Of a DNA stretch of 64,000 nucleotides, positions 11,467 through 58,157 are shown piece after piece (the first letter of the stretch is position 1; every line of letters begins with the position of its first letter). A program made the translations under genes and the position numbers. The DNA lies in sequence record OR525698.1; one strand, 5' to 3'. The DNA comes from Escherichia phage vB-Eco-KMB43. The notes beneath the pieces are model-generated. The model did not search any database. It saw nothing but the letters and a program-made list of their open reading frames with translations, and had not been told where the DNA came from.

Positions 11467-12287
11467 TTAGTCACCTCACCGAAAATTGTAAATTGTCTAC
11501 GATTCTCATCGCCGAAAGATTCTACTACGTCGTTTACCTTGACGCAAGTCCCGCGCGGTAAAATTACTTCACATTCGCAAGGATTCCATGCAATTGACCC
11601 AACAACAAAACCTTTATGATCTTTTACGTCAATTACCCACGATACATTACAAGAATGTTGCATCTTTCCGGTCATCGATTCATATCGATTCTCACAATAA
11701 AGGCTAGTGCTGTTTGATAGCCATCCTCCAAAGATGATCGGTGTCATGCTGGTCGATACAAAGTTTTTAAAGGTAAACTCCTTATCTTCAATGATGCGCT
11801 CTATTGTCTGAATGTCAAGATGTTGACCGCGATAAAGAGTACCGTTTAACTTTTCGGTTTTATCCATGACACAATCCATCAAATCGACAATCTCTGATAT
11901 CTCGTCGGTCATGTCTTCTTCCCCTAAGAGAGCACCATTTACCCATTCGTATTGTTCAGATACATAATCACAGATTGCATTATATTCTGCTGGGGTTATG
12001 TTGTTATGTTTGTAATGTTTGAATACATTATCTCCAAAGTCTTCGGAATGTACTTCATACATCACATTAATGATTTTCTTGACAAATCCATAATCTTGTG
12101 TCTCGCGCTCAAGGAAGCGGATAACCTTCACATAATCATCAAAGTTAATCTGATCGCTGATCATCTCAGTGATCATGTAACCATTAATCCCCTCAATGTC
12201 ATATGTTTCAATATAATTGTCCATACGTTCCATCATTGATTCGCGTGATTCTTCCGAAAGACGAAAATCCTGTAATTTCTTGAACAT
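11463..12287 (-). CDS. Alt-like ADP-ribosyltransferase domain protein (paralog of alt)
   Basis: R-S-E type motifs LYRG, FKNFVSTS, ECEVILPRG shared with the adjacent Alt. Confidence 0.7.
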   Translation of the reverse strand: MFKKLQDFRLSEESRESMMERMDNYIETYDIEGINGYMITEMISDQINFDDYVKVIRFLERETQDYGFVKKIINVMYEVHSEDFGDNVFKHYKHNNITPAEYNAICDYVSEQYEWVNGALLGEEDMTDEISEIVDLMDCVMDKTEKLNGTLYRGQHLDIQTIERIIEDKEFTFKNFVSTSMTPIIFGGWLSNSTSLYCENRYESMTGKMQHSCNVSWVIDVKDHKGFVVGSIAWNPCECEVILPRGTCVKVNDVVESFGDENRRQFTIFGEVTK

Positions 12288-12307
12288 TTTAAACCTCCCA
12301 TATAACA

Positions 12308-12340
12308 GAAAACGGGGCTAGTATAAAACTAGTCCCCGTT
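12308..12340 (-). terminator. terminator after alt
   Basis: Hairpin ACGGGGCTAGT...ACTAGTCCCCGT with flanking A-run on plus strand. Confidence 0.55.
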
Positions 12341-12366
12341 TGAGTCAACCATTATTTCTTAAAAAA

Positions 12367-14460: not shown

Positions 14461-14480
14461 AAAAGGGGCTTAACGCCCCC
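14461..14480 (-). terminator. terminator (GGGGC-TTAAC-GCCCC hairpin family)
   Basis: AAAA upstream on plus strand gives T-run on minus strand. Confidence 0.55.
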
Positions 14481-14485: not shown

Positions 14486-14698
14486 TTATAATGCACCATC
14501 GAGCAATTGCTCTAAGGTGTATCCTGAATAGTCTTTTTCAATCAGGATATATTTTCCTACTCGTTTAATACAACCGCGCATTTCAACGTATTCTGCGTAG
14601 TTGATGGTGCGAGTTGTTCCATCTTCCAGTAATGCAGTACCGATTTCGTTAATGCGGTCATAAGTTACGTCGGTAATGATGATTTCGATGTTAGCCAT
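14486..14698 (-). CDS. hypothetical small protein (70 aa)
   Basis: ORF with AAGGAG RBS, preceded by early promoter, followed by hairpin terminator. Confidence 0.5.
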   Translation of the reverse strand: MANIEIIITDVTYDRINEIGTALLEDGTTRTINYAEYVEMRGCIKRVGKYILIEKDYSGYTLEQLLDGAL

Positions 14699-14734
14699 TT
14701 GATACTCCTTAGTAGTTCGTTTCGGTATGGGTGT

Positions 14735-14763
14735 ATTATGATATACACCCTCTGTTATGTCAA
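14735..14763 (-). promoter_or_regulatory. early promoter, PeSL-like (TTGACA ... CATAAT)
   Basis: -35 TTGACA and -10 with palindromic element, upstream of 14486-14698 ORF. Confidence 0.5.
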
Positions 14764-14769
14764 CAACTT

Positions 14770-14949
14770 TTAGAACATTTTTGAAATCAATTCTGCTTTG
14801 ATTTCGCAGAGAACATCTAAAGATTTCTCGTCACCTGCTTTTGCTGCTTCTGCTTGCATTTTTGAAATGGCTTCAATGTCGGTGCAATTATAAGCCGCTT
14901 GAACTTTAGCGATTGCGATGATTGCCGATTCGATGGTTAAGTGTTTCAT
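14770..14949 (-). CDS. hypothetical small protein (59 aa)
   Basis: ATG at 14949 behind a PeSL promoter and GGAGAATCAA leader; below ORF-track cutoff. Confidence 0.4.
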   Translation of the reverse strand: MKHLTIESAIIAIAKVQAAYNCTDIEAISKMQAEAAKAGDEKSLDVLCEIKAELISKMF

Positions 14950-14981
14950 GTTTGATTCCCCTTTCGTTTCGGTATGTGTGT

Positions 14982-15011
14982 ATTATAGGGGATCACCGAT
15001 CCCCCTGTCAA
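14982..15011 (-). promoter_or_regulatory. PeSL early promoter (TTGACA-GGGGGATCGGTGATCCCC-TATAAT)
   Basis: Consensus -35/-10 with GC stem-loop in spacer. Confidence 0.6.
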
Positions 15012-15022
15012 CAACTTTTTAG

Positions 15023-15538
15023 TTATTTTTTTAATTGCTCATCTTGCAATAGGGCAATCACATGCTGGCGATGTTCTTCCGATTGAGGCACACCGAAAAA
15101 GTTTGTTTTGTAGAAATACTCTAATCGGTCTTCTCGTGTGCTCTCTTCCATCATGATCGCGGGTAGTCCGAGATTTCGGAAACGTCGCTTTTCTGCTGGC
15201 GTAAAATCACTGTAATACAACATAGAATCATCATTACCAGCAATGCTAAACTCATCCTTCATAAAGGAGAATATTGCGTTTAAACGCTGTTTACCGTCCA
15301 CGATTTCGATCTCATAGCGAGAGCCATCATCAATCTTAGCCATTGCGATAGCACCGACCGGAAAATCATTAATCAGGTTTTCGATAAACATACGTTTGTT
15401 TTCGGTGTCCCATACCAAAGGACGCTGATAATCTGGGTTCATGTTGATATAGCCATCTTCTAACCATGCTTCGTAAACAGAGATGACAAAGTTTTTAGTA
15501 TTGGTATAGTAACGGCGTTTAGGCGTTAAACGGTTCAT
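15023..15538 (-). CDS. DUF262 / ParB-like nuclease domain protein
   Basis: Motifs DYQRPLVWD and VDGKQRL (DGQQR-type); start at ATG 15538 with AGGAG RBS. Confidence 0.65.
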   Translation of the reverse strand: MNRLTPKRRYYTNTKNFVISVYEAWLEDGYINMNPDYQRPLVWDTENKRMFIENLINDFPVGAIAMAKIDDGSRYEIEIVDGKQRLNAIFSFMKDEFSIAGNDDSMLYYSDFTPAEKRRFRNLGLPAIMMEESTREDRLEYFYKTNFFGVPQSEEHRQHVIALLQDEQLKK

Positions 15539-15539
15539 G

Positions 15540-15872
15540 TTATAGTCTCCTGAATGGATCATCACGTAAATCAATATCTTTTAAGAACTCATCCCATGAA
15601 TGGCGGATATTGTTCTTAATTCTCCAGATAAGCGCAGGGATTGAACGCTCTCCCATCTGGAAGTATGGATCATATGATCCGTATGCCCAATATGCTACTA
15701 CAATTCCACAATCAGCGCAATAGTATTCTATTTCACTTGCTGGCGACCAAAGTCCATCAATATGATCGGTGATCTTGCTTTCGATGTTATGGCTATGACA
15801 ATCAGGGCAACGGATGCAATGACCTTGTTTATCGTAATTTGACGTTAGCGAATACTTAAACAATCTCATCAT
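15540..15872 (-). CDS. zinc-ribbon protein (CxxC...CxxC)
   Basis: CIRCPDCHSH ... YYCADCG cysteine pairs; coupled to flanking genes. Confidence 0.5.
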   Translation of the reverse strand: MMRLFKYSLTSNYDKQGHCIRCPDCHSHNIESKITDHIDGLWSPASEIEYYCADCGIVVAYWAYGSYDPYFQMGERSIPALIWRIKNNIRHSWDEFLKDIDLRDDPFRRL

Positions 15873-16585
15873 AGATCCTTATTTGCTTCAAATACTGCCT
15901 TTGCGAATCCTCGCGGGGTAAGTGACCTGATAGTCTTTGTTTTCGTTCCTTTCCCGCCTAGCTTAGAATGCTGTTTACTGTACCCTTTATTAATCTGCAA
16001 AGGTTTCTTTTCTGGCATTATAAAGCCTTGTCCGGTCCATAAGCAAGTCTTTTTCGGGTACATATCACGGGCGGCGATATACTCAGGAAAAGTAGGATGT
16101 TTATCATCTTCCGGCAAATAACCGCCATATTCCCACGGATGGAACATATAATCAGGCTTACGCCACATGCTAGAGATAACGCTTACAGGATTCTCTATCA
16201 TGTAGGGAACTCCTAGCCATTCACCCAAATAAGCGGTTATTTTAGCTGCCCGTACATCATGAACTTGAATCAATGGTCCTTGCTCTCGTTTCTTTCGTTC
16301 AAAGTGTGCAGCGCCACTAACAGCTAAATTGGTGCACGGTGGGAATGCAAAGATAATATCCGGTTTCCCCCATTCAAGGTCCATTGCTCTTTCCAGCCAG
16401 TTCAAATCAATCCAGGTGTTTACATAGGTAATGTTTGGATGTTCAAATCTGGTATTATACTTTTTGTATGTACCGTGGTCGGCGTCATCCGCATTAAAGC
16501 AGACTACCTTATGACCTGCTTTAGCCCATTCTAGCCCCATTATCCCCGATCCGTCAAAGTTACAGAATATTAATTTTTGTTTCAT
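15869..16585 (-). CDS. minimal C5-cytosine methyltransferase-like protein (238 aa, no obvious target recognition domain)
   Basis: Motif I-like FDGSGIMG, motif IV AFPPCTNLAVSG, motif VI ENP, motif X-like LTPRG. Confidence 0.55.
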   Translation of the reverse strand: MKQKLIFCNFDGSGIMGLEWAKAGHKVVCFNADDADHGTYKKYNTRFEHPNITYVNTWIDLNWLERAMDLEWGKPDIIFAFPPCTNLAVSGAAHFERKKREQGPLIQVHDVRAAKITAYLGEWLGVPYMIENPVSVISSMWRKPDYMFHPWEYGGYLPEDDKHPTFPEYIAARDMYPKKTCLWTGQGFIMPEKKPLQINKGYSKQHSKLGGKGTKTKTIRSLTPRGFAKAVFEANKDL

Positions 16586-16827
16586 ATACGCCCCTTTAAT
16601 CCAACACAGATTTTAGAAGGTTCTTTGCCGTGCCACATTAAGTAAAGTCCATTAATGCGGCCTTGTTTTGTATATGATTCTTTTCTGATCTTCTTATAGT
16701 GTCGTGCTTCCTCAGCCGATTGTTTAGAATACCAATCATAAAGGAAGAGGCACAAAGGCCAACCATTAGCGGCCTTAATGCAGTTATTAAGAAATTCCTT
16801 ATTGCGTTTAATTAATTTTCTTTTCAC
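16582..16827 (-). CDS. hypothetical protein (81 aa)
   Basis: ORF overlapping neighbours by 4 nt within operon. Confidence 0.5.
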   Translation of the reverse strand: MKRKLIKRNKEFLNNCIKAANGWPLCLFLYDWYSKQSAEEARHYKKIRKESYTKQGRINGLYLMWHGKEPSKICVGLKGRI

Positions 16828-17075
16828 GCTGCCCCCATTGGTTTGATAGTAACAGAATCTAAAAGACCTTTGTTAGCCAGTTCGCGGCAAGTTTTCAGAT
16901 CCGCAACTTCCCAGCCAGCCGCAATCAGGTTATCGATGAGGCTGTTAGCAACTTCTTCGCTCATGAAAGAGCACTGTTTGCCGATGGTGTAGCGTACACG
17001 CTGTAATTTCAGTTTACGGAAGCCTTTAACGTTCAGGTCTTTAGCGATTTTCTTTGCGGTTTCGATGTTAGCCAT
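16824..17075 (-). CDS. hypothetical protein (83 aa), first gene of the PeSL-driven operon
   Basis: AGGAGA RBS, PeSL promoter at 17115-17144. Confidence 0.5.
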   Translation of the reverse strand: MANIETAKKIAKDLNVKGFRKLKLQRVRYTIGKQCSFMSEEVANSLIDNLIAAGWEVADLKTCRELANKGLLDSVTIKPMGAA

Positions 17076-17114
17076 TGTTTGATTCTCCTAAGTGGTATCT
17101 AGTCTTGATGGTTG

Positions 17115-17144
17115 TATTGTAGGGGAGTTATCCTCCCCTGTCAA
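17115..17144 (-). promoter_or_regulatory. PeSL early promoter (stem GGGGAGG/CCTCCCC)
   Basis: TTGACA with GC palindrome; drives operon 17075 to 15023. Confidence 0.5.
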
Positions 17145-17158
17145 CACTTTTTATAAAA

Positions 17159-17326
17159 TTATTTGTTAATTTCCGGTGCGTTGCTAGGATAGTAACCTTC
17201 TTTAACTCCGAGGTATTTCGCAACCATCCCTACAATCTTCTGTGCTACTACAATGTCAAATTTCAGATAATCTTCGCCGTGGGTTTCAATGATATATGCT
17301 TCACATGCTGCTTTAGTCTCGAACAT
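17159..17326 (-). CDS. hypothetical small protein (55 aa), paralog of 20780-20947
   Basis: MFETKAACEAY...NAPEINK; near-identical copy elsewhere; PeSL upstream. Confidence 0.45.
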   Translation of the reverse strand: MFETKAACEAYIIETHGEDYLKFDIVVAQKIVGMVAKYLGVKEGYYPSNAPEINK

Positions 17327-17359
17327 TTTGATTCTCCTATTTCGTTTCGGTATGTGTGT

Positions 17360-17388
17360 ATTATAGGGGATCTCCCGATCCCCGTCAA
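17360..17388 (-). promoter_or_regulatory. PeSL early promoter (TTGACG-GGGATCGGGAGATCCCC-TATAAT)
   Basis: Consensus hexamers with stem-loop spacer. Confidence 0.6.
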
Positions 17389-17404
17389 CAACTTTTTTTT
17401 AAAA

Positions 17405-17686
17405 TTATTCGTGATTAGTTTCGATGTTGTGCATTTTGCACCAGTTCAGCCAATCACCCAGATCCTGATAGTTAATGCTTTTATCTGCTGCCATCGTTTT
17501 TGTCTTGATACCCATATGTGCGTTATGAGTAAGCATTTTTACAGTGAACTCAATTTTATCACCTTTAGCTTTAACATCAACCAGTTTGGTCCACTGGCTA
17601 CCAGCGCCGCGAATGTTCATACCAACGATGTTTCCGATGTATGCTTCTTTGTTTTTCAGGATTTCGGTTGCTTTGATGAATTTCAT
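17405..17686 (-). CDS. hypothetical protein (93 aa)
   Basis: ORF after PeSL promoter with GGAGAATCAA leader. Confidence 0.5.
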   Translation of the reverse strand: MKFIKATEILKNKEAYIGNIVGMNIRGAGSQWTKLVDVKAKGDKIEFTVKMLTHNAHMGIKTKTMAADKSINYQDLGDWLNWCKMHNIETNHE

Positions 17687-17719
17687 TTTTGATTCTCCAG
17701 TTCGTTTCGGTATGTGTGT

Positions 17720-17748
17720 ATTATGCTATTTTCTTACTTTGGTGTCAA
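17720..17748 (-). promoter_or_regulatory. early promoter (TTGACA-17-CATAAT), PeSL-related without clear stem
   Basis: Hexamers at correct spacing plus shared CACACATACCGAAACGAA leader. Confidence 0.5.
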
Positions 17749-17757
17749 CAACTTTTT

Positions 17758-18027
17758 TTAGATATTTTCAGAAATAAATTTTAAAACTTGACGTAAATGT
17801 TTCTCATCTTTGATAGTCGCCGGAAGTTCTTCTTTTACTTCCTGTGCAAGATAGATATTTCCGTTCCAAGTGAAAGATCCGTCTTCGTTTACGCGATAGC
17901 TGAACATCCACTCGCAATCATTTTCGATTTCATATACACACAGAAGAGTGTAATCTTCAAAGCTATTGATTTCAAGGTCGAAGCCGTGACGTTTTGCAAA
18001 GTTGGTAGTGGTTTTAGTCAGTGCCAT
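17758..18027 (-). CDS. hypothetical protein (89 aa)
   Basis: ORF after PeSL promoter. Confidence 0.5.
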   Translation of the reverse strand: MALTKTTTNFAKRHGFDLEINSFEDYTLLCVYEIENDCEWMFSYRVNEDGSFTWNGNIYLAQEVKEELPATIKDEKHLRQVLKFISENI

Positions 18028-18068
18028 TGTTTGATTCTCCTAAGTGGTATCTCGTCTTGATGGGTGTA

Positions 18069-18096
18069 TTATGCTATAGGCGTGATCTGGTGTCAA
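18069..18096 (-). promoter_or_regulatory. early promoter (TTGACA ... CATAAT)
   Basis: Hexamers upstream of 17758-18027 ORF. Confidence 0.5.
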
Positions 18097-18344
18097 TGCT
18101 TTTTTTAATTTTATGCAATAAAAAGACGACACTAAGGTCGGCACATTTTAAAAATTCTTGCCATATATGCAAGCCTCATAATCTAGAGGATGACCGCCAA
18201 TCCTACCCGGCTTAATATTCCAACCGCATCGATATTTGCTGACCATGCTAACAGTTTCGGTTCTTAGAGCATTTTCTTTGCAAATCATACCCCATAAATT
18301 CTTTTCTATAAGGACAGTCCGCTTTGCAAGTTGGCGGTTCTACG

Positions 18345-18536
18345 TCATTTAGCGGGTCGGAAGCAGTTGGCTTTATTATCAATTCTTTGTTTGCAATAAT
18401 CATAAGCACATCCCATTGAAGACAATTTAACATCTTCGCAATAAGTGTTGAATCCGTCAAACACGGTCACTTCGTATTTGACTCCATCAGCGATAGCTTT
18501 TACTTTATACCATCCATGCTTGTATAAAATCTTCAT
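18345..18536 (-). CDS. hypothetical Cys-containing protein (63 aa)
   Basis: GAGGAAAT RBS plus ATG right after PeSL. Confidence 0.45.
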   Translation of the reverse strand: MKILYKHGWYKVKAIADGVKYEVTVFDGFNTYCEDVKLSSMGCAYDYCKQRIDNKANCFRPAK

Positions 18537-18568
18537 CTTTATTTCCTCAATCTCGTTTCGATGGGTGT

Positions 18569-18598
18569 ATTATGCTATAGGCTAGACCAGGTTGTCAA
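18569..18598 (-). promoter_or_regulatory. early promoter (TTGACA ... CATAAT)
   Basis: Hexamers upstream of 18345-18536 ORF. Confidence 0.5.
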
Positions 18599-18621
18599 CA
18601 ACTTTTTTAATTTTTTGGAAA

Positions 18622-18647
18622 TAAAAAAGCCGACGCTAAGGTCGGCT
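18622..18647 (-). terminator. terminator
   Basis: Hairpin AGCCGAC-GCTAAG-GTCGGCT with A-run. Confidence 0.55.
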
Positions 18648-18654
18648 AATAAAA

Positions 18655-18963
18655 TCATTTAGACAAATAATCATTCTGTGCAATCCGGTCGGCGTATGCT
18701 GGTGTTACGTCAATCGCCAACACTTTAACGCGTGCTTTCTTGCGACCTGGGTTTTCTCGTAACCAGTGCTCATGACCGTGCACATTTTTATATTTTGATG
18801 CGGTTTCGAAGGTACGGATCGGACCTGGATAATCTGCGTAAAGGATCTCTAGGTCTTCGGTGATGTAAAAATATACATCATAATTACTGTTCTCTAGTTT
18901 AAGCAGAGAATTGCGAAATTGTGGTAAATTCTCGCGGGTAAATTCAACTACAAGATTTTTCAT
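18655..18963 (-). CDS. HxHW-motif small protein family member
   Basis: Shares H.HW and LAIDVTP motifs with five paralogs; start at ATG 18963 with GAGGA RBS. Confidence 0.5.
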   Translation of the reverse strand: MKNLVVEFTRENLPQFRNSLLKLENSNYDVYFYITEDLEILYADYPGPIRTFETASKYKNVHGHEHWLRENPGRKKARVKVLAIDVTPAYADRIAQNDYLSK

Positions 18964-18988
18964 AGTGATATCCTCATTCAGATAGATT

Positions 18989-19007
18989 AAAAGGGGCTTA
19001 ACGCCCC
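18989..19007 (-). terminator. terminator (GGGGC-TTAAC-GCCCC hairpin family)
   Basis: Same hairpin as the 14461 copy. Confidence 0.55.
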
Positions 19008-19012
19008 GTATA

Positions 19013-19300
19013 TTAAAACAGTCCTTCCTGTACACCGTAGTAGAGTTCGTCACTGATAATTTCATTAATGCGACGGTGTGCATATTCCTGATTTGCGAAG
19101 TTGTCAGCAAGTTCTACTTTAGTTTCGCCGTCATGAGTCCATTTAGTGATAACTTTACCATCTGCAAATTTGAAGTTGAACTCTTTAGCTACTGCATCGC
19201 GTACCAGACGTGCGAACTTGTTGTTACGGATTGCATTATCGGTTTCGTGTGCAGCGTGAGCAAATTTGTTAACTTTCAGAGTGATAGTAATGTATGCCAT
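19013..19300 (-). CDS. hypothetical protein (95 aa), AKEFN-motif pair with 22182-22493
   Basis: ORF after PeSL; shared motif RDAVAKEFNFK. Confidence 0.5.
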   Translation of the reverse strand: MAYITITLKVNKFAHAAHETDNAIRNNKFARLVRDAVAKEFNFKFADGKVITKWTHDGETKVELADNFANQEYAHRRINEIISDELYYGVQEGLF

Positions 19301-19346
19301 AATTTGATTCTCCTAGTTAGAAAGTGTATCTCGTTTCGATGGGTGT

Positions 19347-19375
19347 ATTATGCTATACACCCGATCCATTGTCAA
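19347..19375 (-). promoter_or_regulatory. early promoter (TTGACA-17-CATAAT)
   Basis: Hexamers upstream of 19013-19300 ORF. Confidence 0.5.
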
Positions 19376-19707
19376 CGCCTTTTTATAAAATAATTTTCGA
19401 TATCTTTATGATGTTTTTCTCGTGCTTGGTCTGCCTCGGCTGGCGATACGTTGGAAGCGATAATCTTCACTACTGTTGCACCTTTTTCGGTGTCCGACAC
19501 CCAATGATTATGGAAACCGCTATTATTAAACACTTGATAAGAAAATGATTTAATGCTAGGGAAATTATATGTGTAATAGCGTACCTTTAATTCTGAATCT
19601 ATGTATAGATAGATCACCGCACCTAGATAGACCGTCTCACTCGTTCCATCAACTAACAGTAGAGTATTTCGCAATTCTTCTAAATTGTCTTTTGTAAGAA
19701 AAATCAT
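19372..19707 (-). CDS. HxHW-motif small protein family member
   Basis: FHNHW ... IIASNVSPAEADQAREKHH. Confidence 0.5.
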   Translation of the reverse strand: MIFLTKDNLEELRNTLLLVDGTSETVYLGAVIYLYIDSELKVRYYTYNFPSIKSFSYQVFNNSGFHNHWVSDTEKGATVVKIIASNVSPAEADQAREKHHKDIENYFIKRR

Positions 19708-19721
19708 AGTATAATCCTCAA

Positions 19722-20045
19722 TTAAACCAAATTAACTTTGGTGTTGTGGTGTTTTTCTCGTGCTTCGTCCGCTTCTTCCGGTGTCACGTTACGAGCGACT
19801 ACAATAACACTTGCTGCCTCTCCGTGATGAGAGATCTCTACCCAATGGTTATGATTTGTGAATCCGTGTTTTATTGCGTAAGCGAACGGCTTGGACGTCC
19901 AGTAGTTACTATAATATCGTACATTTAGATCGCTATCAATGTACAAATATGTGCTGTCGTTTACATTGCCACTAACAACAAAAACAAGACAATTGCGAAG
20001 ATCTGGCAATATTTTGTCTGTCAATTTTATAATGTGACTGTTCAT
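19722..20045 (-). CDS. HxHW-motif small protein family member
   Basis: NHNHW ... VVARNVTPEEADEAREKHH; ATG at 20045. Confidence 0.5.
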   Translation of the reverse strand: MNSHIIKLTDKILPDLRNCLVFVVSGNVNDSTYLYIDSDLNVRYYSNYWTSKPFAYAIKHGFTNHNHWVEISHHGEAASVIVVARNVTPEEADEAREKHHNTKVNLV

Positions 20046-20047
20046 AA

Positions 20048-20257
20048 TTAACACCACTCAAGAGTTTTTGAAAACACATCTATCCATTGTTGAGTATATG
20101 CAGTTTCTTTCCACGAGACAATACCAGTAGAATAATGATTCTTGTTTCCAGAAAAGGACGGGCATTTTGATGCATCTTCCATCATCTTTTCGGCGAACTC
20201 TGGTTCGTATACTCGCAAGATCTGTTGATATGCTTTGTAGTCTTTAAATTTGCTCAT
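20048..20257 (-). CDS. hypothetical protein (69 aa)
   Basis: ORF in overlapping operon. Confidence 0.45.
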   Translation of the reverse strand: MSKFKDYKAYQQILRVYEPEFAEKMMEDASKCPSFSGNKNHYSTGIVSWKETAYTQQWIDVFSKTLEWC

Positions 20258-20522
20258 AATCGTTAACTACCTTATCAGCTTCTTTTATTGTTTTTACATC
20301 AACTGCGATAACCCGTAAAGGTTCGTCGTGGTTCCACCAATGATCGTGAATATCAGCTTGTGATTTATCACCAAAGGAATCACGAATATCATTTTTACAT
20401 TTATAGCTAATGTGACCGTCATAGTCAACATAAAGGTAATTATCGAAAATCGGCGTTTTTAAGATCATGCCGAAAAATCTTTCTTTGTGTGTCTTATCCA
20501 GTGTTGCAGTAATTCGCATCAT
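20244..20522 (-). CDS. HxHW-motif small protein family member
   Basis: HDHWW ... IAVDVKTIKEADK. Confidence 0.5.
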   Translation of the reverse strand: MMRITATLDKTHKERFFGMILKTPIFDNYLYVDYDGHISYKCKNDIRDSFGDKSQADIHDHWWNHDEPLRVIAVDVKTIKEADKVVNDYEQI

Positions 20523-20534
20523 AATATATTCCTC

Positions 20535-20714
20535 TTAGAAAGGGATGGTCATTTCTTGAGCTTGTACATTCTCGTTAGGATTAAACTTCATCCAACCGAT
20601 ATTGTCTACCAGCATATGCACATTTTTATCATATCCTACGTGAGTAGTCAATACTAAATGTGCTTTACCTTCAACGATGATTTCCATGTACTTCTGAACT
20701 TCGATAGCTTTCAT
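20535..20714 (-). CDS. hypothetical small protein (59 aa)
   Basis: ATG 20714 behind PeSL and GGAGAATCAA leader. Confidence 0.4.
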   Translation of the reverse strand: MKAIEVQKYMEIIVEGKAHLVLTTHVGYDKNVHMLVDNIGWMKFNPNENVQAQEMTIPF

Positions 20715-20747
20715 TTTTGATTCTCCGTTTGTTGTCTTGATGGGAGT

Positions 20748-20776
20748 ATATTACTACTCCCTTTAATCATTGTCAA
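20748..20776 (-). promoter_or_regulatory. PeSL early promoter (stem GGGAGTA/TACTCCC)
   Basis: TTGACA plus palindrome GGGAGTATATTACTACTCCC. Confidence 0.5.
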
Positions 20777-20779
20777 CTA

Positions 20780-20947
20780 TTATTTGTTAATTTCCGGTGC
20801 GTTGCTCGGATAGTAACCTTCTTTAACACCCAGATATTTTGCGACCATTCCGGTGATCTTCTGTGCTACTACAATGTCAAATTTCAGGTAGTCTTCACCG
20901 TGGTTTGCTACAATGTATGCTTCGCATTCTGCTTTAGTCTGGAACAT
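20780..20947 (-). CDS. hypothetical small protein (55 aa), paralog of 17159-17326
   Basis: MFQTKAECEAY...NAPEINK; PeSL upstream. Confidence 0.45.
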   Translation of the reverse strand: MFQTKAECEAYIVANHGEDYLKFDIVVAQKITGMVAKYLGVKEGYYPSNAPEINK

Positions 20948-20981
20948 TTTTGATTCTCCTATATCTCGTTGGTATGTGTGT

Positions 20982-21010
20982 AGTATAGGGGATCACCGAT
21001 CCCCTGTCAA
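20982..21010 (-). promoter_or_regulatory. PeSL early promoter (TTGACA-GGGGATCGGTGATCCCC-TATACT)
   Basis: Same stem-loop spacer as the 14982 copy. Confidence 0.6.
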
Positions 21011-21017
21011 CAACTTT

Positions 21018-21326
21018 TTATTCTTCATCTTCATCTTTATCTTGATATGCGTACGTCATAAATTTGTCTGCTACTTTGTCCGCGTTTTCAGGTTCTACGT
21101 CTGACGCTAGGACAACAGCTAGTTCTGTTTTGTCGTTTCCATCATACCAATGATTATGAGTGTCGTTTTCTTCGATATAAAACGAATCATTTGGAGTTGT
21201 GCGACAATATACGTCTAAATTCCCATCGATATAAAAGATCCAATCCGAATACAAAATGATTGTTTTAGCAAGATTTTTATTGCCTTCAACGAAAGGTTCG
21301 GCTACAAACAAATTAGTATGTTCCAT
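21018..21326 (-). CDS. HxHW-motif small protein family member
   Basis: THNHW ... VVLASDVEPENADK; start ATG 21326 with GAGGAAAAA RBS. Confidence 0.5.
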   Translation of the reverse strand: MEHTNLFVAEPFVEGNKNLAKTIILYSDWIFYIDGNLDVYCRTTPNDSFYIEENDTHNHWYDGNDKTELAVVLASDVEPENADKVADKFMTYAYQDKDEDEE

Positions 21327-21343
21327 AGTATTTTTCCTCAAAA

Positions 21344-21535
21344 TTATACAGCTTCGTAAACTTCCCAATGTCCAACACCAGCACGCTTAACGAAAAGGTT
21401 TTCTTTTATGTTATTCATAAACGTCTGGATGGATTTAATTCGTTTGGAAGGTTTCCAGTCTTCGTTGGTATTGCGTCGATACATCATAACATTACCAGAC
21501 CGCTTATATTCAGCAACCATTTTAAGACCACACAT
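21344..21535 (-). CDS. hypothetical protein (63 aa)
   Basis: ORF track; promoter-like motif upstream. Confidence 0.4.
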   Translation of the reverse strand: MCGLKMVAEYKRSGNVMMYRRNTNEDWKPSKRIKSIQTFMNNIKENLFVKRAGVGHWEVYEAV

Positions 21536-21580
21536 AATATTATCCTCAATTTGTGGGAGAGTATTACCCTCCCGATTATT

Positions 21581-21612
21581 GTTATACTACATTACGCAAA
21601 ATGGCGTGTCAA
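21581..21612 (-). promoter_or_regulatory. early promoter-like element with nearby GC palindrome
   Basis: TTGACA present; -10 weak; palindrome GGGAG...CTCCC displaced. Confidence 0.3.
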
Positions 21613-21912
21613 TGCTTCTTTTGCTGTTCCGCTAAGATTCTCTATCTCTCCTGGCATAACATCAACCGCCAGAACTTCTACAACATCCTCTGATCCTAAC
21701 CAGTGAGTATGACCTTTGTAGAACTTGATAATCAGACTACCTTCCTCATCCCATTTAACGCTATCGCTAGCCCACCACACATCACCGTCGATAAAGTTGA
21801 TGTAAAGCACACTACGCCACATTGAATTAATTACTTTCAATACTGCGCCTTTCATATCTTCCACGGTGTGGTCTTCCATTTTGAAGACCTCGCCTACCTG
21901 AACTTTTGCCAT
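21592..21912 (-). CDS. HxHW-motif small protein family member
   Basis: GHTHW ... LAVDVMPGE; RBS GAGAGGTGA. Confidence 0.5.
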   Translation of the reverse strand: MAKVQVGEVFKMEDHTVEDMKGAVLKVINSMWRSVLYINFIDGDVWWASDSVKWDEEGSLIIKFYKGHTHWLGSEDVVEVLAVDVMPGEIENLSGTAKEALTRHFA

Positions 21913-21929
21913 TTAGTCACCTCTCTTTA

Positions 21930-22109
21930 TTACATAACAATTACGCCAGCCGTTGAAAGTTGATGTTTCAACTGAGCATTTTCTGCTACTGTCAAATCAA
22001 TGATTTCTTGTGACGCTGCAATCATATAGCCATTGGTGATATTGTTTTGCATCAGTTCAATGGTTTCTTCGTTGTAGCGGATTTTAGCGATGATTTCGTT
22101 GAAGTTCAT
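21930..22109 (-). CDS. hypothetical small protein (59 aa)
   Basis: ATG 22109 behind PeSL; MNFNEIIAKIRY... Confidence 0.4.
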   Translation of the reverse strand: MNFNEIIAKIRYNEETIELMQNNITNGYMIAASQEIIDLTVAENAQLKHQLSTAGVIVM

Positions 22110-22143
22110 AATTGATTCTCCTAGTTCGTTTCGGTATGTGTGT

Positions 22144-22173
22144 ATTATAGGGGAGTTTAACCTCCCCTGTCAA
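22144..22173 (-). promoter_or_regulatory. PeSL early promoter (TTGACA-GGGGAGGTTAAACTCCCC-TATAAT)
   Basis: Consensus hexamers with stem-loop spacer. Confidence 0.6.
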
Positions 22174-22181
22174 CAACTTTT

Positions 22182-22493
22182 TTAAAGTTTTTCCATGATA
22201 ACGGTCATAATTACATCTTCTGCGCGAGCGGTCAGATTATCAGCGTCAGCATGTGGGCGGTTGGTTGTTACAGAGATAACACCGTTGCGCACTGGTTTGA
22301 TATTGATATCAAGATGATCCGCGAAACGTTCGCCAGTTACAGAATGAATTTTGGTGTTAAATTCTTTTGCCAGTGCCTTGCGAACTTCACGAATCAGGAT
22401 AGCGTTTTTCAGTTGGTTCTCCGCGCTCATGGTCTTCTGAGTGTTCATGGTTCCGTCGAAGTCAATCATTGGCAGCGTTACGATGTATTTCAT
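22182..22493 (-). CDS. hypothetical protein (103 aa), AKEFN-motif pair with 19013-19300
   Basis: Shared motif REVRKALAKEFNTK; PeSL upstream. Confidence 0.5.
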   Translation of the reverse strand: MKYIVTLPMIDFDGTMNTQKTMSAENQLKNAILIREVRKALAKEFNTKIHSVTGERFADHLDINIKPVRNGVISVTTNRPHADADNLTARAEDVIMTVIMEKL

Positions 22494-22537
22494 TTTTGAT
22501 TCTCCGTTTAAGAAAGTGTGTTTCGTTTTGATGTGTG

Positions 22538-22567
22538 TAGTATAGGGGATACGTGATCCCCTGTCAA
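22538..22567 (-). promoter_or_regulatory. PeSL early promoter (TTGACA-GGGGATCACGTATCCCC-TATACT)
   Basis: Consensus -35 with stem-loop spacer. Confidence 0.6.
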
Positions 22568-22580
22568 CAACTTTTTTGAA

Positions 22581-22925
22581 TTATTTTTTCATGAGCTTAA
22601 TGGCTTCTTCCATAGCCAGCACATTTCGATAGTTAGGGTATCGTGTTAGATCGTCATACATTCGCTTAAGGGTGGAAACTTCCTCAAACTCTGGGTTTTC
22701 TAGATACAGTTGAACAAATTGTTTCTCTACCATCTCGGCTTTTAGCTTGTCTGCTTGTTCCTGTTCATATGATTTCGTTGGACCCAACACCAACAAAATG
22801 ATAAAGGTGATCAACGGGCTAATGATCAATGATAGGATAACATAACCAATAACGCTACGGTTTAAACGGCTTGCGTACATGCCTACAAGGAAAACAAAAA
22901 GGATATAGATAAACAGAAAGAACAT
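22581..22925 (-). CDS. small membrane protein (two predicted TM segments)
   Basis: Hydrophobic N-terminal half FFLFIYILFVFLVGMY... IISPLITFIILLVLG. Confidence 0.5.
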   Translation of the reverse strand: MFFLFIYILFVFLVGMYASRLNRSVIGYVILSLIISPLITFIILLVLGPTKSYEQEQADKLKAEMVEKQFVQLYLENPEFEEVSTLKRMYDDLTRYPNYRNVLAMEEAIKLMKK

Positions 22926-30313: not shown

Positions 30314-30712
30314 TTAACTTTCCAGAATATCGCGAGCTTCGTTACGCTCCTTGATGATTTTCAGGACAAATTCCAGTTTTTCTTTGTTCAGTGTTCCGTT
30401 TTCCATTGCTTCTTTGACGGTAAACACTCCGCCACCTTGCCCGTATACAGTGACAGTGATTTCACCTAACATCGTGGTATGAAAACCGCCAATTTTCGGT
30501 GATTCGAAAGAAACAATTACCTCGCGAACAGTATTACCGTCGTTGATTTCTGAGAGGGTAATGTCGTTTTTGTAGGCGGTTGCTTTAACCATACGGATCA
30601 ACATAGTCTGATCTGGTGAGATGGTCATTTTGTCCATTGCATGTTGCAATGCAGCGTAACCGAAAACTTTAACGAAGTCCAGAACATCTTTGCGAGTTTG
30701 AAATTTAATCAT
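30314..30712 (-). CDS. hypothetical protein (132 aa)
   Basis: ORF behind PeSL with hairpin terminator downstream. Confidence 0.5.
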   Translation of the reverse strand: MIKFQTRKDVLDFVKVFGYAALQHAMDKMTISPDQTMLIRMVKATAYKNDITLSEINDGNTVREVIVSFESPKIGGFHTTMLGEITVTVYGQGGGVFTVKEAMENGTLNKEKLEFVLKIIKERNEARDILES

Positions 30713-30745
30713 CTTGATACTCCTTAGTTGTTTTGGTATGGGAGT

Positions 30746-30774
30746 ATCTTACTACTCCCGTGATATGCTGTCAA
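30746..30774 (-). promoter_or_regulatory. PeSL early promoter (stem GGGAGTAG/ATACTCCC)
   Basis: TTGACA, palindrome overlapping -10 TAAGAT. Confidence 0.5.
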
Positions 30775-30782
30775 CTGCTTTT

Positions 30783-30932
30783 TTATGCAACCGCAAACAT
30801 CAACATTTGAACATTCTTGGCTGTCTGGCTTTCAAAGTTCTGACATTCTTTGATAATGTCCTCTACTTTCTCGCCGGAGATCTCCGCGTAAGTTTCGATT
30901 GCCATTTTCAGTACCGCGTCAAAGTTGTTCAT
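30783..30932 (-). CDS. hypothetical small protein (49 aa)
   Basis: ATG 30932 behind PeSL and GGAGAATCAA leader. Confidence 0.35.
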   Translation of the reverse strand: MNNFDAVLKMAIETYAEISGEKVEDIIKECQNFESQTAKNVQMLMFAVA

Positions 30933-30970
30933 TTGATTCTCCTTAAAGTTTATTTCGTTTCGATGGGGGT

Positions 30971-30999
30971 ATATTAATACCCCCGTTATTCAGTGTCAA
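30971..30999 (-). promoter_or_regulatory. PeSL early promoter (stem GGGGGTAT/ATACCCCC)
   Basis: TTGACA-17-TAATAT with palindrome. Confidence 0.55.
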
Positions 31000-31218
31000 C
31001 TACTTTTTAATGACAATTTCGAATTTTGCTACCTTGCGTCCTCGTTTATTGAAAGCAACCCACGGACGGTTTTCAATATAGAACAATTCTTCGCCAATAA
31101 TGAATACTGGCTGATTGTAAAGGCGACCCATCAGGTCACGCTGGCGAATGGTAGTAGATTCGTATACTTCGCCTACTACAAAGTGTTTGCTGATAGAGTC
31201 GGTGCAAGTAAATTTCAT
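31000..31218 (-). CDS. hypothetical protein (72 aa), VAKFEI-motif pair with 59495-59701
   Basis: C-terminal KVAKFEIVIKK shared with a paralog; PeSL upstream. Confidence 0.5.
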   Translation of the reverse strand: MKFTCTDSISKHFVVGEVYESTTIRQRDLMGRLYNQPVFIIGEELFYIENRPWVAFNKRGRKVAKFEIVIKK

Positions 31219-31251
31219 TTTGATTCTCCTTTGTTTCGTTTCGATGGGAGT

Positions 31252-31280
31252 ATCTTACTACCCCCGTTATTCAGTGTCAA
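31252..31280 (-). promoter_or_regulatory. PeSL early promoter
   Basis: TTGACA-17-TAAGAT with imperfect palindrome. Confidence 0.5.
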
Positions 31281-31287
31281 CTACTTT

Positions 31288-31506
31288 TTACTTGTTGTAT
31301 TCATTCCACCATTGGGTGAGCTTATCAATTATTTTTGTGTTTCTATCCAACTTATCCCACCGTTTTCGAGGGTTTATCAACCGTAATAGGTAAGGTGTAC
31401 TTGTTAAGTGAACTCGGTCAATATAGTGATTGATGTACTGCTTTTCGATTCTAAGTTTCATCTTTTTACGATGAAAATATGCAATGACTTGTTCTTCTGT
31501 TTCCAT
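31288..31506 (-). CDS. hypothetical protein (72 aa)
   Basis: ORF behind PeSL. Confidence 0.5.
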   Translation of the reverse strand: METEEQVIAYFHRKKMKLRIEKQYINHYIDRVHLTSTPYLLRLINPRKRWDKLDRNTKIIDKLTQWWNEYNK

Positions 31507-31529
31507 ATGTTCCTCCGTTTCGATGTGCG

Positions 31530-31559
31530 TATTATGCTATGGCAAGATCAGATTGTCAA
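31530..31559 (-). promoter_or_regulatory. early promoter (TTGACA-17-CATAAT)
   Basis: Hexamers upstream of 31288-31506 ORF. Confidence 0.5.
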
Positions 31560-31570
31560 CACCCAATAAC

Positions 31571-31596
31571 AAAAAAGTCGCCACTATGGGCGACTT
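31571..31596 (-). terminator. terminator
   Basis: Hairpin AGTCGCC-ACTATG-GGCGACT with A-run. Confidence 0.55.
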
Positions 31597-33599: not shown

Positions 33600-33766
33600 T
33601 ATCCGACAACCTCAAAACATTTATCATCAGGAAGAATCGCCCATTCTACACCGTATTCATCCTCAACGTAGTAGCAAGTCCCATCATGTCGAGCATCATA
33701 TTCATCACCAACAACAAAGCTATCAGCTAGTTCAAAATCTACAGCAACACATTTTAATTTGGTCAT
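33599..33766 (-). CDS. hypothetical small acidic protein (55 aa)
   Basis: ATG 33766 with GAGGA RBS behind PeSL. Confidence 0.4.
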   Translation of the reverse strand: MTKLKCVAVDFELADSFVVGDEYDARHDGTCYYVEDEYGVEWAILPDDKCFEVVG

Positions 33767-33797
33767 AATAAAATCCTCACTTGTTTTTGATGGTTGT

Positions 33798-33826
33798 ATT
33801 ATAGCGGGGATTTCTCCCCGCGTCAA
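33798..33826 (-). promoter_or_regulatory. PeSL early promoter (TTGACG-CGGGGAGAAATCCCCGC-TATAAT), downstream flank of MTase cassette
   Basis: Core identical to the copy at 34696-34724. Confidence 0.65.
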
Positions 33827-34674: not shown

Positions 34675-34695
34675 TCTTACAATTCACCTCACATT

Positions 34696-34724
34696 ATTAT
34701 AGCGGGGATTTCTCCCCGCGTCAA
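34696..34724 (-). promoter_or_regulatory. PeSL early promoter (TTGACG-CGGGGAGAAATCCCCGC-TATAAT), upstream flank of MTase cassette
   Basis: Core identical to the copy at 33798-33826; overlaps nrdA stop. Confidence 0.65.
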
Positions 34725-34732
34725 CAGTTATT

Positions 34733-39539: not shown

Positions 39540-39570
39540 AATATAATCCTCTCTTTGTTTCGATGTGTGT

Positions 39571-39598
39571 ATTATACATTACCACATCAGCATGTCAA
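39571..39598 (-). promoter_or_regulatory. early promoter (TTGACA ... TATAAT)
   Basis: Hexamers upstream of 39210-39539 ORF. Confidence 0.5.
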
Positions 39599-39629
39599 CA
39601 CCTTTTTCATAAAATTTTAGGCAATAAAA

Positions 39630-57042: not shown

Positions 57043-57065
57043 AATATAATCCTCACGTCAACAAC

Positions 57066-58123: not shown

Positions 58124-58157
58124 AATATATTCCTCAGTGTTTTGTCTTGATGGGAGT

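Follow-up and report, generated by a model that had tools for sequence, protein, structure and literature searches.

The repeated units of the early small-gene region of Escherichia phage vB-Eco-KMB43 (record OR525698.1) are, with a probability of about 90%, the PeSL (promoter-early stem-loop) cassettes of Krischvirus, which combine an early promoter, an insulating hairpin and recombination between units. Cassettes of this kind were described before in RB49-type coliphages, so the identification is correct but ordinary. The observations made on this phage and its relatives are the anatomy of the units, their strand bias, the stability and compensatory changes of the hairpins, the orthology to tested elements and the chimeric junctions. 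The literature supplies the promoter strength, the mini-circles and the shut-down of a reporter by the PeSL211/210 stem-loop. Small additions to what is known are the fast divergence of the hairpins with pairing kept, a sense-strand G·U bias, a RegB-like Shine-Dalgarno and a likeness to Certrevirus.

Identity and anatomy of the units

The window, meaning the whole stretch of 64,000 nucleotides analysed, is placed in Krischvirus, the RB49-like T4-type coliphages, by megablast, which aligns it at 94-98% identity to RB49, phi1, JSE and some 60 relatives, in agreement with the RB49-group assignment of the first-pass annotation. The flagged span (14.7-22.6 kb), which lies between alt and the DNA ligase gene gp30, corresponds to RB49 ORF185-211 by orthology. 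PeSLs were defined in this variable ORF185-211 region, where PeSL193/192, PeSL206/205 and PeSL211/210 were tested; five stem-loop positions were distinguished, the PeSL206/205 promoter reached about 13,000 Miller units, the PeSL211/210 stem-loop, tested as a terminator/attenuator, shut down lacZ in an rrnB-T1-like manner, and ORFan192, within the orthologous stretch, was assigned to HPR3 (Arbiol et al. 2010, PMC2839356). The early promoter consensus of RB49 also agrees with 5'-end mapping in the literature. The proposed match to the PeSL elements of phi1/RB49 is borne out, as the unit at 22567 is identical to RB49 PeSL211/210 (100/100 nt) and the unit at 21010 differs by a few bases from PeSL206/205 of RB49 and phi1. 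On the whole RB49 genome, a profile of the window's units gives 43 matches at E<0.01 and 48 at E<1; the published PeSL count is 51.

The same profile, built from the window's own units and searched with nhmmer at a cut-off of E<0.01, finds 24 matches on the minus strand of the window and 0 on the plus strand. The earlier estimate of about 25 minus-strand copies thus stands, although only 12 lie inside 14700-22570. All loci listed with it (14.7-22.6, 30.7-31.6, 33.8-34.7 and 58.1-59.8 kb) were found again, but a site at 39.6 kb had been missed. Beyond the 24 there are two variant units, 21612 and 12348, and 57046-57077 holds a half-unit. A direct-repeat search of 14.0-23.5 kb returns 16 families.

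Each unit consists, in order, of an A-rich stretch, TTGAC(A/G/T), a spacer of 17-18 nt, a TATAAT-like -10, a C/A-rich leader, a Shine-Dalgarno and ATG. Spacer length and -10 are as first described; the -35 was given as TTGAC(A/G), which fits 23 of the 24 units (18 TTGACA, 5 TTGACG) but not one with TTGACT. The conserved leader end before the ATG holds in part: the Shine-Dalgarno GGAGAATCAA is exact in 12/24 units and present with at most one mismatch in 17/24, whereas the remaining 7 carry a GAGGA-type sequence. The Shine-Dalgarno of the units resembles a RegB site, and any role of RegB would be conjectural. The stop codon of the preceding gene falls from 65 nt 5' of the -35 to 20 nt within the promoter. 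In the 23 units with a located downstream start, the ATG lies 53-77 nt past the first base of the -35. The units thus sit upstream of small ORFs, as had been noted; these measure 49-132 aa, with the exceptions of one of 252 aa and one of 283 aa after unit 34724, the latter identified separately from the other downstream ORFs.

With its A-rich upstream stretch, such a near-consensus sigma-70 promoter would be used by the host RNA polymerase immediately after infection, each unit driving leftward transcription of one to five small early genes. The transcript would start about 7 nt past the -10, the exact start sites and 3' ends in vB-Eco-KMB43 being predictions, and its C/A-rich leader would be unstructured, with a strong Shine-Dalgarno GGAGAAUCAA 4-7 nt before the AUG.

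The units along the window

Units are named here by the first base of their -35, and all are on the minus strand. At the left of the flagged span, unit 14763 (14694-14780) has a hairpin GGGTGTAT..ATACACCC that overlaps the -10 CATAAT (MFE -13.6, z -2.9) and precedes a 70-aa ORF (14486-14698), the homologue of phi1 ORF185. Unit 15011 (14945-15027) carries the spacer hairpin GGGGGATCGGTGATCCCC before a 59-aa ORF186 homologue. Unit 17144 (17075-17162; spacer hairpin GGGGAGGATAACTCCCC, MFE -19.4, z -4.8) heads a five-gene unit from ORF190 to ORF187 that includes a DNA methyltransferase. Unit 17388 (17319-17405; spacer hairpin GGGGATCGGGAGATCCCC) precedes a 55-aa ORF191 homologue and represents the phi1-type 193/191 junction, RB49 ORF192 being absent here. 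At 17748 (17679-17765) a PeSL-type promoter and leader have no hairpin (MFE -2.4, z -0.3) and precede a 93-aa ORF193 homologue. The core of unit 18096 (18024-18112; 89-aa ORF194 homologue) also lacks one, and a decayed copy of an upstream terminator lies at about 18125-18145.

The hairpin of unit 18598 (18528-18612; 63-aa ORF196 homologue) is a canonical terminator just upstream, at 18628-18647, composed of AGCCGACCTTAGCGTCGGCT followed by TTTTTTAT (MFE -11.5, z -3.0). Unit 19375 (19299-19392) has GGGTGTAT..ATACACCC over the -10 and a long leader before a 95-aa ORF198 homologue. In unit 20776 (20711-20791; 59-aa ORF204 homologue; MFE -12.2, z -3.3) the hairpin is GGGAGTAGTAATATACTCCC, cited earlier as a second example of a spacer palindrome; this was mistaken, as it overlaps the -10, with TAATAT in its loop and 3' arm. 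Unit 21010 (20942-21022), the PeSL206/205 orthologue, bears the spacer hairpin GGGGATCGGTGATCCCC before a 55-aa ORF205 homologue, and the variant unit 21612 (TTGACA-N17-TAGTAT, 21535-21622; 63-aa ORF207 homologue) has its hairpin GGGAGGGTAATACTCTCCC downstream of the -10. Unit 22173 (22106-22191; spacer hairpin GGGGAGGTTAAACTCCCC; 59-aa ORF209 homologue) corresponds to a site with four different hairpin alleles among relatives. The span closes with unit 22567 (22488-22584), in front of a 103-aa ORF210 homologue. After alt, the divergent unit 12348 (12287-12365; TTGACT-N17-TATACT) has a 30-nt hairpin covering spacer and -10, followed by a T-rich tail.

Further along, the hairpin lies over the -10 in units 30774 (30703-30787), 30999 (30929-31016; GGGGGTATTAATATACCCCC) and 31280 (31216-31291; one G·U pair), and upstream with a T-tract in 31559 (31513-31576). 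Unit 33826 (33756-33841; spacer hairpin GCGGGGAGAAATCCCCGC) is the right-hand member of a perfect 33-nt direct repeat; the core of unit 34724 (34666-34738) equals that of 33826 with a different leader and drives an inserted C5-methyltransferase gene. The overlooked unit 39598 (39530-39616) has an upstream hairpin and T-tract. In the distal cluster, hairpins lie over the -10 in 58186 (58118-58197), 58469 (58405-58487), 58782 (58711-58798; decayed) and 59488 (59420-59504; 10 pairs), and upstream with a T-tract in 59762 (TTGACT, 59694-59776). The half-PeSL at 57046-57077 joins an A-rich stretch and GTTGTTGAC directly to the Shine-Dalgarno GAGGATTATATTATG; spacer, -10 and leader are missing, and it is comparable to the 'degraded PeSLs' of Comeau et al. 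2014.

Probable recombination between units

Since copies have about 50-100 nt in common, phage homologous recombination may cross over between units, and such crossovers would delete, insert, duplicate or swap the intervening gene. The suggestion of recombination-driven shuffling is supported by chimeric junction units in relatives. In PHB13 the 5' side of the junction matches unit 15011 and the 3' side unit 14763, with the switch inside the shared CATACCGAAACGAA; in phi1, units 18598 and 18096 are joined inside the terminator T-tract. Identical 33-nt PeSL cores flank the methyltransferase cassette on both sides, and 3/82 records contain this cassette. The PeSL+ORF cassette ORF191/ORF205 is a duplication, and ORF198 and ORF210, each with a PeSL in front, belong to the same PHROG family.

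The units could also be ordinary early promoters and terminators only, alike through constraint and shared descent, with recombination incidental to any dispersed repeats in a recombination-proficient T4-type phage. The sole difference from the main explanation is whether selection has favoured shuffling as a function, and this reading is possible, if doubtful. PeSL junctions show no clear enrichment of indel breakpoints (about 9/14 ends vs 13/~26 gene junctions with a unit in the flagged span); this weak enrichment over other junctions leaves 5 of about 14 ends at junctions without a PeSL, and the events at 16584/16811, 20039-20043, 21910-21912 and 22946 involve none. No recombinase is known for PeSLs, and the GenBank record of the relative GEC-3S labels the corresponding site simply promoter/-35/-10. 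Certrevirus phages, an unrelated genus, have the same promoter-hairpin design, which suggests a regulatory and not a mobility rationale. Against it, however, stand the PHB13 and phi1 junction units, each an exact chimera of two units of the window, the cassette between identical cores, and the published inverse-PCR mini-circles, with crossovers within PeSLs, between the -10 and the Shine-Dalgarno/ATG.

Stem-loops and their RNA

A stable hairpin is present in 21/24 units, with a free energy, folded singly, of -9.3 to -14.2 kcal/mol. The GC-rich palindrome expected in the spacer is found there in 8/24 units; in 9 the hairpin lies over the -10 and in 4 upstream of the -35 with a T-tract, positions that fall in classes already described in the literature. 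In nine flagged-span units, 49-nt folds give -11 to -19 kcal/mol (z-scores -1.6 to -4.8). The hairpin is not obligatory, because unit 17748 has none and two units (18096, of upstream type, and 58782, over the -10) have decayed ones.

Whichever of the three positions it takes, the GC-rich hairpin lies upstream of the unit's own start and so would be present only in RNA reading in from the preceding gene. There it may stop, attenuate or cap that gene's transcript, by which each cassette would be insulated from its neighbour. Termination is presumed over 3'-end protection: in four units the equivalent place is taken by a canonical terminator of hairpin and T-tract, which suggests that the hairpin's job is termination.

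Pairing is preserved by compensatory changes: pair 6 of class A occurs as U-A or G-C, pair 4 of class B as A-U, G·U or G-C, and in class C both sides of pairs 4 and 5 change; as the copies are paralogues and orthologues, few independent events lie behind these changes. At orthologous sites in eight relatives the spacer diverges by 9.6%, the -35 by 0.2% and the first 45 nt of the ORF by 0.9%, and every spacer-hairpin allele folded or read directly still pairs. Among 53 distinct hairpins, G·U pairs number 11 on the sense vs 2 on the antisense strand, and the RNA is more stable as sense in 30 and as antisense in 13 (Wilcoxon p=2e-5). Such a bias suggests that the hairpins act in RNA transcribed in the early direction.

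The bias specifies an RNA-level role and not its kind, and the hairpins might instead serve the preceding gene's mRNA as 3'-end protection, processing barriers or 5'/3' stability elements that set its half-life and do not halt RNA polymerase. The 8 nt after spacer and -10-overlapping hairpins hold 1-3 T, with no canonical intrinsic-terminator T-run, and a terminator scan flagged only the upstream type; the published lacZ assay, moreover, reads downstream expression and not termination itself. Yet the PeSL211/210 stem-loop cut downstream lacZ to the rrnB T1 level, an effect not expected of an element that only stabilises 3' ends, and this, with the four canonical terminators, makes stabilisation without termination rather unlikely.

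Quite improbable is a DNA-level role of the palindromes, as operators bound by a dimeric protein of phage or host that shuts off early promoters, or as targets of a recombination protein specific for structure or sequence, the latter a speculation of Arbiol et al. (PMC2839356) for GGGG...CCCC. A palindrome between -35 and -10 does lie where operators classically do; class A stems have GGGG/CCCC as their invariant outer part, many class A arms include GATC, and the alternation at orthologous sites of the loop triplets GGT and ACC, each the reverse complement of the other, would be compatible with hairpin or cruciform formation in DNA. A duplex-DNA site, however, would show no strand bias of G·U pairs; inner stem and loop differ widely while pairing is kept, hairpin position varies, and the Certrevirus stems (GGGGCC/GGCCCC, GCCGGG/CCCGGC) are quite unlike those of Krischvirus at the same position.

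A chance or low-complexity origin of the repeats, to which only a generic promoter scan at a lenient threshold lends itself (36 sites vs 28.2±5.9 in shuffles), is refuted by the profile's strand bias and by motif counts: the minus strand has 12 exact copies of GGAGAATCAA vs 0.22 expected (0/100 shuffles reach 12) and the plus strand 0, and TTGACR-N17-YAYAMTAC with at most one mismatch occurs 15 times vs 0.51 expected. The repeated promoter-stem-loop units of about 50 bp are therefore real, and comparison with relatives finds that the motif is present and that over 60 related genomes have kept the units.

Early promoter cassettes of the RB49/phi1 type

The repeated units of the window are promoter-early stem-loop (PeSL) cassettes of the RB49/phi1 type, which are already known. 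By megablast, the window is Krischvirus DNA, with 94-98% identity to RB49, phi1, JSE, and about 60 others, and the span 14700-22570 is the orthologue of the RB49/phi1 ORF185-211 stretch, between alt and DNA ligase. PeSLs were defined in this stretch by Arbiol, Comeau, Kutateladze, Adamia, and Krisch (2010, Genome Biol Evol 2:140; PMC2839356). When each minus-strand unit is named by the first base of its -35, unit 22567 is RB49 PeSL211/210 at 100/100 nt, and near-identity is seen between unit 21010 and PeSL206/205 and between unit 17388 and the phi1 193/191 junction. Both the PeSL interpretation and the RB49-group assignment of the first-pass annotation are thereby borne out.

The published counts are 52 PeSLs for phi1 and 51 for RB49, and five positions of the stem-loop were distinguished; promoter activity was tested for PeSL193/192 and PeSL206/205, the latter reaching about 13,000 Miller units, and the stem-loop of PeSL211/210 had a terminator-like activity comparable to that of rrnB T1 (PMC2839356). 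Mini-circles around ORF192 and ORF210, formed by exchange between flanking units, were also described in RB49/phi1 (PMC2839356). For RB49, the consensus of the early promoters is in accord with 5′-end mapping (Nolan et al. 2006). As in RB49 and phi1, the window units consist of a near-consensus TTGACA-N17-TATAAT promoter, an AT-rich upstream region containing the previous stop, stem-loops of the form G(n)-loop-C(n) that vary in position, and a Shine-Dalgarno and ATG at the 3′ end; they lie in hyperplastic regions before ORFans, at the same locus, and form chimeric junctions at indels. The only difference from RB49/phi1 lies in cassette content, all other comparable features being in agreement, and the present genome is one more that confirms the published PeSL model.

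The units are visible as repeats by plain reading of the minus strand at 14.5-22.8 kb, and a direct-repeat search of 14.0-23.5 kb returned 16 families. An nhmmer profile, seeded with 12 obvious copies and then rebuilt on 24, matches 24 sites on the minus strand of the 64-kb window at E<0.01 and none on the plus strand. Twelve of these fall within the 14700-22570 span, with the -35 at 14763, 15011, 17144, 17388, 17748, 18096, 18598, 19375, 20776, 21010, 22173, and 22567. The others, also on the minus strand, are found at 30774-31559 (four units), 33826, 34724, 39598, and 58186-59762 (five units), and two divergent variants are present on the same strand at 21612 and 12348. The earlier estimate was about 25 minus-strand copies; unit 39598 was absent from its list. 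Run over the complete RB49 genome, this profile gives 43-48 sites, versus the 51 published.

Such repetition is far above chance: 12 occurrences of GGAGAATCAA were counted where 0.22 are expected, and 15 of the promoter pattern TTGACR-N17-YAYAMTAC where 0.51 are expected. In a generic promoter search with a lenient cut-off, the region did not stand out from shuffled sequence (36 vs 28±6); the signal is restricted to near-perfect matches, so that a dedicated profile is required. A regular expression with a TA..AT -10 misses the CATAAT and TAATAT classes, and nhmmer profiles were used instead.

Structurally, the 24 units carry TTGACA (18 units), TTGACG (5), or TTGACT (1) as the -35, with an A-run and GTTG (aaaaaGTTG) just before it, a spacer of 17-18 nt, and TATAAT, TATACT, CATAAT, TACAAT, TAATAT, or TAAGAT as the -10. 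Every unit occupies the interval from one gene's stop codon to the start codon of its downstream neighbour. That stop codon precedes the -35 by 3-21 nt, or by 50-65 nt where a terminator hairpin intervenes; in 4 units it overlaps the promoter. The ATG follows 53-77 nt after the -35 in the 23 units with a located start, and a Shine-Dalgarno was found 3-11 nt before it in all 23 units scanned; by eye, unit 34724 has GAGG, a 12-nt spacer, and ATG. The leader is C/A-rich (ACACACATACCGAAACGA...). The conserved leader end claimed by the first-pass annotation holds for part of the set, GGAGAATCAA being exact in 12 units and present with at most one mismatch in 17; the other 7 have Shine-Dalgarno sequences of the GAGGA type.

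The units cluster in stretches of small hypothetical ORFs, and the downstream ORFs encode 49-132 aa, with two larger exceptions. Pfam assigned no family to nine of the small ORFs, and the only PHROGs matched were of unknown function. With 12 canonical units and 1 variant for about 26 genes, the 14700-22570 span would be divided into transcription units of 1-5 genes. In the published model, PeSLs arrange the early ORFan regions as self-contained expression cassettes and act as linkers in modular gene shuffling; in annotation, the 24 units can be used as markers of early transcription units and of the phage group.

Hairpin position, evolution, and possible roles

The hairpin occupies different places in different units. 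Eight hairpins fill the spacer, with GGGG..CCCC or GCGGGG..CCCCGC stems and energies of -9.3 to -14.2 kcal/mol, and nine overlap the -10, with GGGAGTA..TACTCCC or GGGTGTAT..ATACACCC stems. Four others precede the -35 and have a T-run after them, and are hence canonical terminators. Two units have decayed hairpins, unit 17748 has none, and in variant 21612 the hairpin is downstream of the -10. The spacer palindromes described earlier are consequently real in eight units, but one example offered for them, GGGAGTAGTAATATACTCCC, overlaps the -10 and is not a spacer. GATC, the Dam site, recurs near positions +10 to +14 of the spacer in units 15011, 17388, 18096, 19375, 21010, 22567, and 31559, and twice in most class A hairpins (those with outer GGGG/CCCC); RB49-type phages encode Dam. 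These copies are paralogous and hence non-independent, so that no statistical claim is made on Dam sites.

Eight relatives were compared with the window site by site. Over orthologous sites, divergence amounts to 9.6% in the spacer, 4.3% in the -10, and 3.0% in the leader, compared with 0.2% in the -35 and 0.9% in the first 45 nt of the ORF. All the spacer-hairpin alleles listed for orthologous sites keep their pairing, and the site before the ORF209 homologue carries four different hairpins among nine phages. Compensatory changes, with G·U intermediates, occur at 4 stem positions; pairs of hairpin classes B and C were counted directly, since MAFFT misaligned those hairpins. Structure, not sequence, is conserved in the hairpin, which is the fastest-changing yet structurally kept part of the unit.

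Every hairpin in the 24 profile units is upstream of the predicted start site of its own unit, the exception being 21612 among the variants, and a hairpin so placed would be present solely in RNA reading in from upstream. The U-run of a canonical intrinsic terminator belongs to the upstream-type hairpins of units 18598, 31559, 39598, and 59762 (6-7 T in 8 nt) and is absent from the 17 spacer and -10 hairpins (1-3 T among the 8 nt that follow). Because these 17 have no U-tract, the case for true termination comes from the published reporter assay, made on a sequence identical to that of unit 22567, and the same feature is an argument for a less likely rival reading of the spacer and -10 hairpins as 3′-end protectors. 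A duplex-DNA operator, which the palindromes could also suggest, is argued against by a strand bias: among 53 distinct hairpins, G·U pairs number 11 in sense stems vs 2 in antisense stems, and stability is greater for the sense RNA in 30 hairpins vs 13 (p=2e-5). This bias speaks for a role at the RNA level, on transcripts that read through.

Against Rfam (E≤1), the stretch at 14.0-23.5 kb gave two sub-threshold chance matches only and no known RNA family. Two near-identical terminator-like hairpins without a promoter, GGGGCGTTAAGCCCC followed by a T-run, stand alone on the minus strand, one at 18993-19007 after the ORF198 homologue and the other at 14464-14480 after the ORF185 homologue and before alt. 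At two orthologous PeSLs (20982-21010 and 22539-22567), the GGT of the 3-nt loop alternates with its reverse complement ACC among phages 94-98% identical (the window and the eight relatives). This alternation could reflect palindrome inversion or conversion from another unit. It was rejected as proof of DNA hairpin events, given that the single-step intermediates GGC and GCC are also found and the steps GGT-GGC-GCC-ACC, or inter-unit conversion, explain it equally.

Cassette content and recombination footprints

The recombination-driven shuffling proposed for these elements has left two clear traces in relatives: the junction units of PHB13 and phi1 are chimeric. PHB13 is devoid of 14740-14962, and its junction unit joins unit 15011 on the 5′ side to unit 14763 on the 3′ side, with the switch in CATACCGAAACGAA. 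In phi1 and five others, 18143-18549 is missing and the switch falls in the terminator T-tract common to units 18598 and 18096. Relatives also differ at unit 17388, where RB49, JSE, and G2494 have an extra ORF, and at unit 22567, where the presence of ORF211 varies. Four other breakpoints contain no unit, and with 8 relatives the enrichment of breakpoints at PeSL junctions over all gene junctions is not convincing.

A further case is the gene of a 283-aa C-5 cytosine DNA methyltransferase (Pfam PF00145, E 4e-19) at 33823-34738 on the minus strand, with nrdA and the ORF233 homologue as neighbours. A perfect direct repeat of 33 nt flanks the gene, each copy being a PeSL core, CTGTTGACGCGGGGAGAAATCCCCGCTATAATA (units 34724 and 33826), and the stop codon of the gene is the TGA within the second TTGAC. 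The cassette occurs in 3 of 82 matching phage records (LF73P4, Delraymugoa, and Aragogtheria), the others having a single unit. Together with the two chimeric junctions, this gene between identical promoter cores offers a clean new illustration of the model, and mini-circles are predicted from the pairs 14763/15011, 18096/18598, and 33826/34724.

Comparison of cassette content with RB49, phi1, and JSE, as the first-pass annotation had proposed, revealed a mix of the three types. The genome combines the phi1-type absence of ORF192, RB49-type ORF195/196 and ORF211, the two-ORF segment of JSE, and the rare methyltransferase cassette. The two-ORF segment (19417-20042), consisting of two paralogous ORFs of about 110 aa, is found elsewhere in the phage collection only in JSE (97.8%), and the ORF195/196 segment (18143-18549) is present in 16 records, JSE not among them. 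The full combination is in no record of the collection. Since coverage of the 14700-22570 span reaches at most 87% in any record, the combination is new, as is expected for this region.

Duplication has also contributed to the array. A PeSL and its gene are duplicated at 17158-17329 and 20779-20950, where the ORF191 and ORF205 homologues (55 aa) share 89% protein identity and 87% identity over 172 nt. The homologues of ORF198 and ORF210, at 19013-19300 and 22182-22493, belong to one PHROG (7474) and both have a long leader containing ACACTTTCT. Four ORFs of about 100 aa and of unknown function (18655-18963, 19372-19707, 19722-20045, and 21018-21326) form a paralogous family spread through the array, with blastp identities of 30-45% and E down to 7e-23; by eye, 20244-20522 may be a fifth member.

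Shine-Dalgarno sites and counterparts in other phages

Only two leads go beyond the literature, namely, a RegB-like Shine-Dalgarno and a Certrevirus counterpart. The first concerns GGAGAAUCAAA, which is present in 11 units (e.g., 17078-17088, 20716-20726, and 22495-22505). The RegB/S1 consensus of T4 early mRNAs is GGAGRAYARAA, an 11-nt single-stranded element of the translation initiation region (Durand et al. 2006; PMC1702504). Like the T4 sites, GGAGAAUCAAA is located in the Shine-Dalgarno of early genes, and it agrees with the consensus at 10/11 positions; unlike them, it has C at position 8 in all copies, where T4 strongly favours A. RB49 encodes regB (RB49p094), a gene which lies outside the window, and RegB is not mentioned in the PeSL paper (PMC2839356). 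Being one base off the consensus, the motif suggests that the Krischvirus cassette may carry its own mRNA shut-off signal.

The second lead derives from a blastn search with one unit, which also matched Certrevirus phages (Vequintavirinae), which are not T4-like. At about 80.5-92 kb of Cronobacter phage CR3 (NC_017974), some 20 sigma-70-like early promoters precede small ORFs. About 13 of them have GC-rich spacer hairpins of -10.8 to -13.5 kcal/mol, and several more have hairpins over the -10 by eye. The Krischvirus profile finds 8 units in CR3 at E<0.01, the best of them matching, leader included, at 2.4e-9. The Certrevirus early promoter has been given as AAAA(N3-4)TGTTGAC(N17-19)TATAAT (Buttimer et al. 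2020; PMC7344957); by word search, the main text of that paper describes the promoter alone, the terms "stem-loop," "hairpin," and "PeSL" being absent. The Certrevirus array resembles the window PeSLs in its dense series of sigma-70-like promoters before small early ORFs and in its C/A-rich leaders, whereas it belongs to an unrelated lineage and has GGGGCC..GGCCCC and GCCGGG..CCCGGC stems.

The match with CR3 could represent convergence or horizontal spread of cassettes, the latter being predicted by the mini-circle model. It is tempting to regard the hairpin-in-promoter as a design common to large virulent myoviruses of enterobacteria in general and not as a T4-like peculiarity, but we consider this rather unlikely; under such a design, the unit would be a compact RNA-level insulator, the transcript of the neighbour being stopped exactly where the next begins.

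Other known systems share part of this organisation. Lambdoid morons (Hendrix et al. 2000) and integron cassettes, a comparison drawn by Arbiol et al. themselves (PMC2839356), are likewise single genes with their own expression signals, variably present. However, morons have no conserved flanking linkers mediating exchange, and integron cassettes need an integrase and attC/attI and usually have no promoter of their own; for RB49/phi1 PeSLs, no recombinase has been identified (PMC2839356). The PeSLs/PmSLs of PST/T4 and nt-1/KVP40 described by Comeau, Arbiol, and Krisch in 2014 (PMC4122927) are also composites of promoter, stem-loop, and Shine-Dalgarno in hyperplastic regions and near indels. 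They differ in promoter consensus (TTTACW..TAYWAT and TTGYVH..TAWWAT), in stems (A3-4G3..C3T3-4 and AGNA..TCNT), and in the position of the stem-loop just upstream of the promoter, some being middle-promoter versions (PMC4122927). The degraded "half" units of those phages resemble a half-PeSL of the window at 57046-57077 on the minus strand, in which an A-rich stretch and GTTGTTGAC are fused to the Shine-Dalgarno GAGGATTATATTATG, the spacer, -10, and leader being absent.
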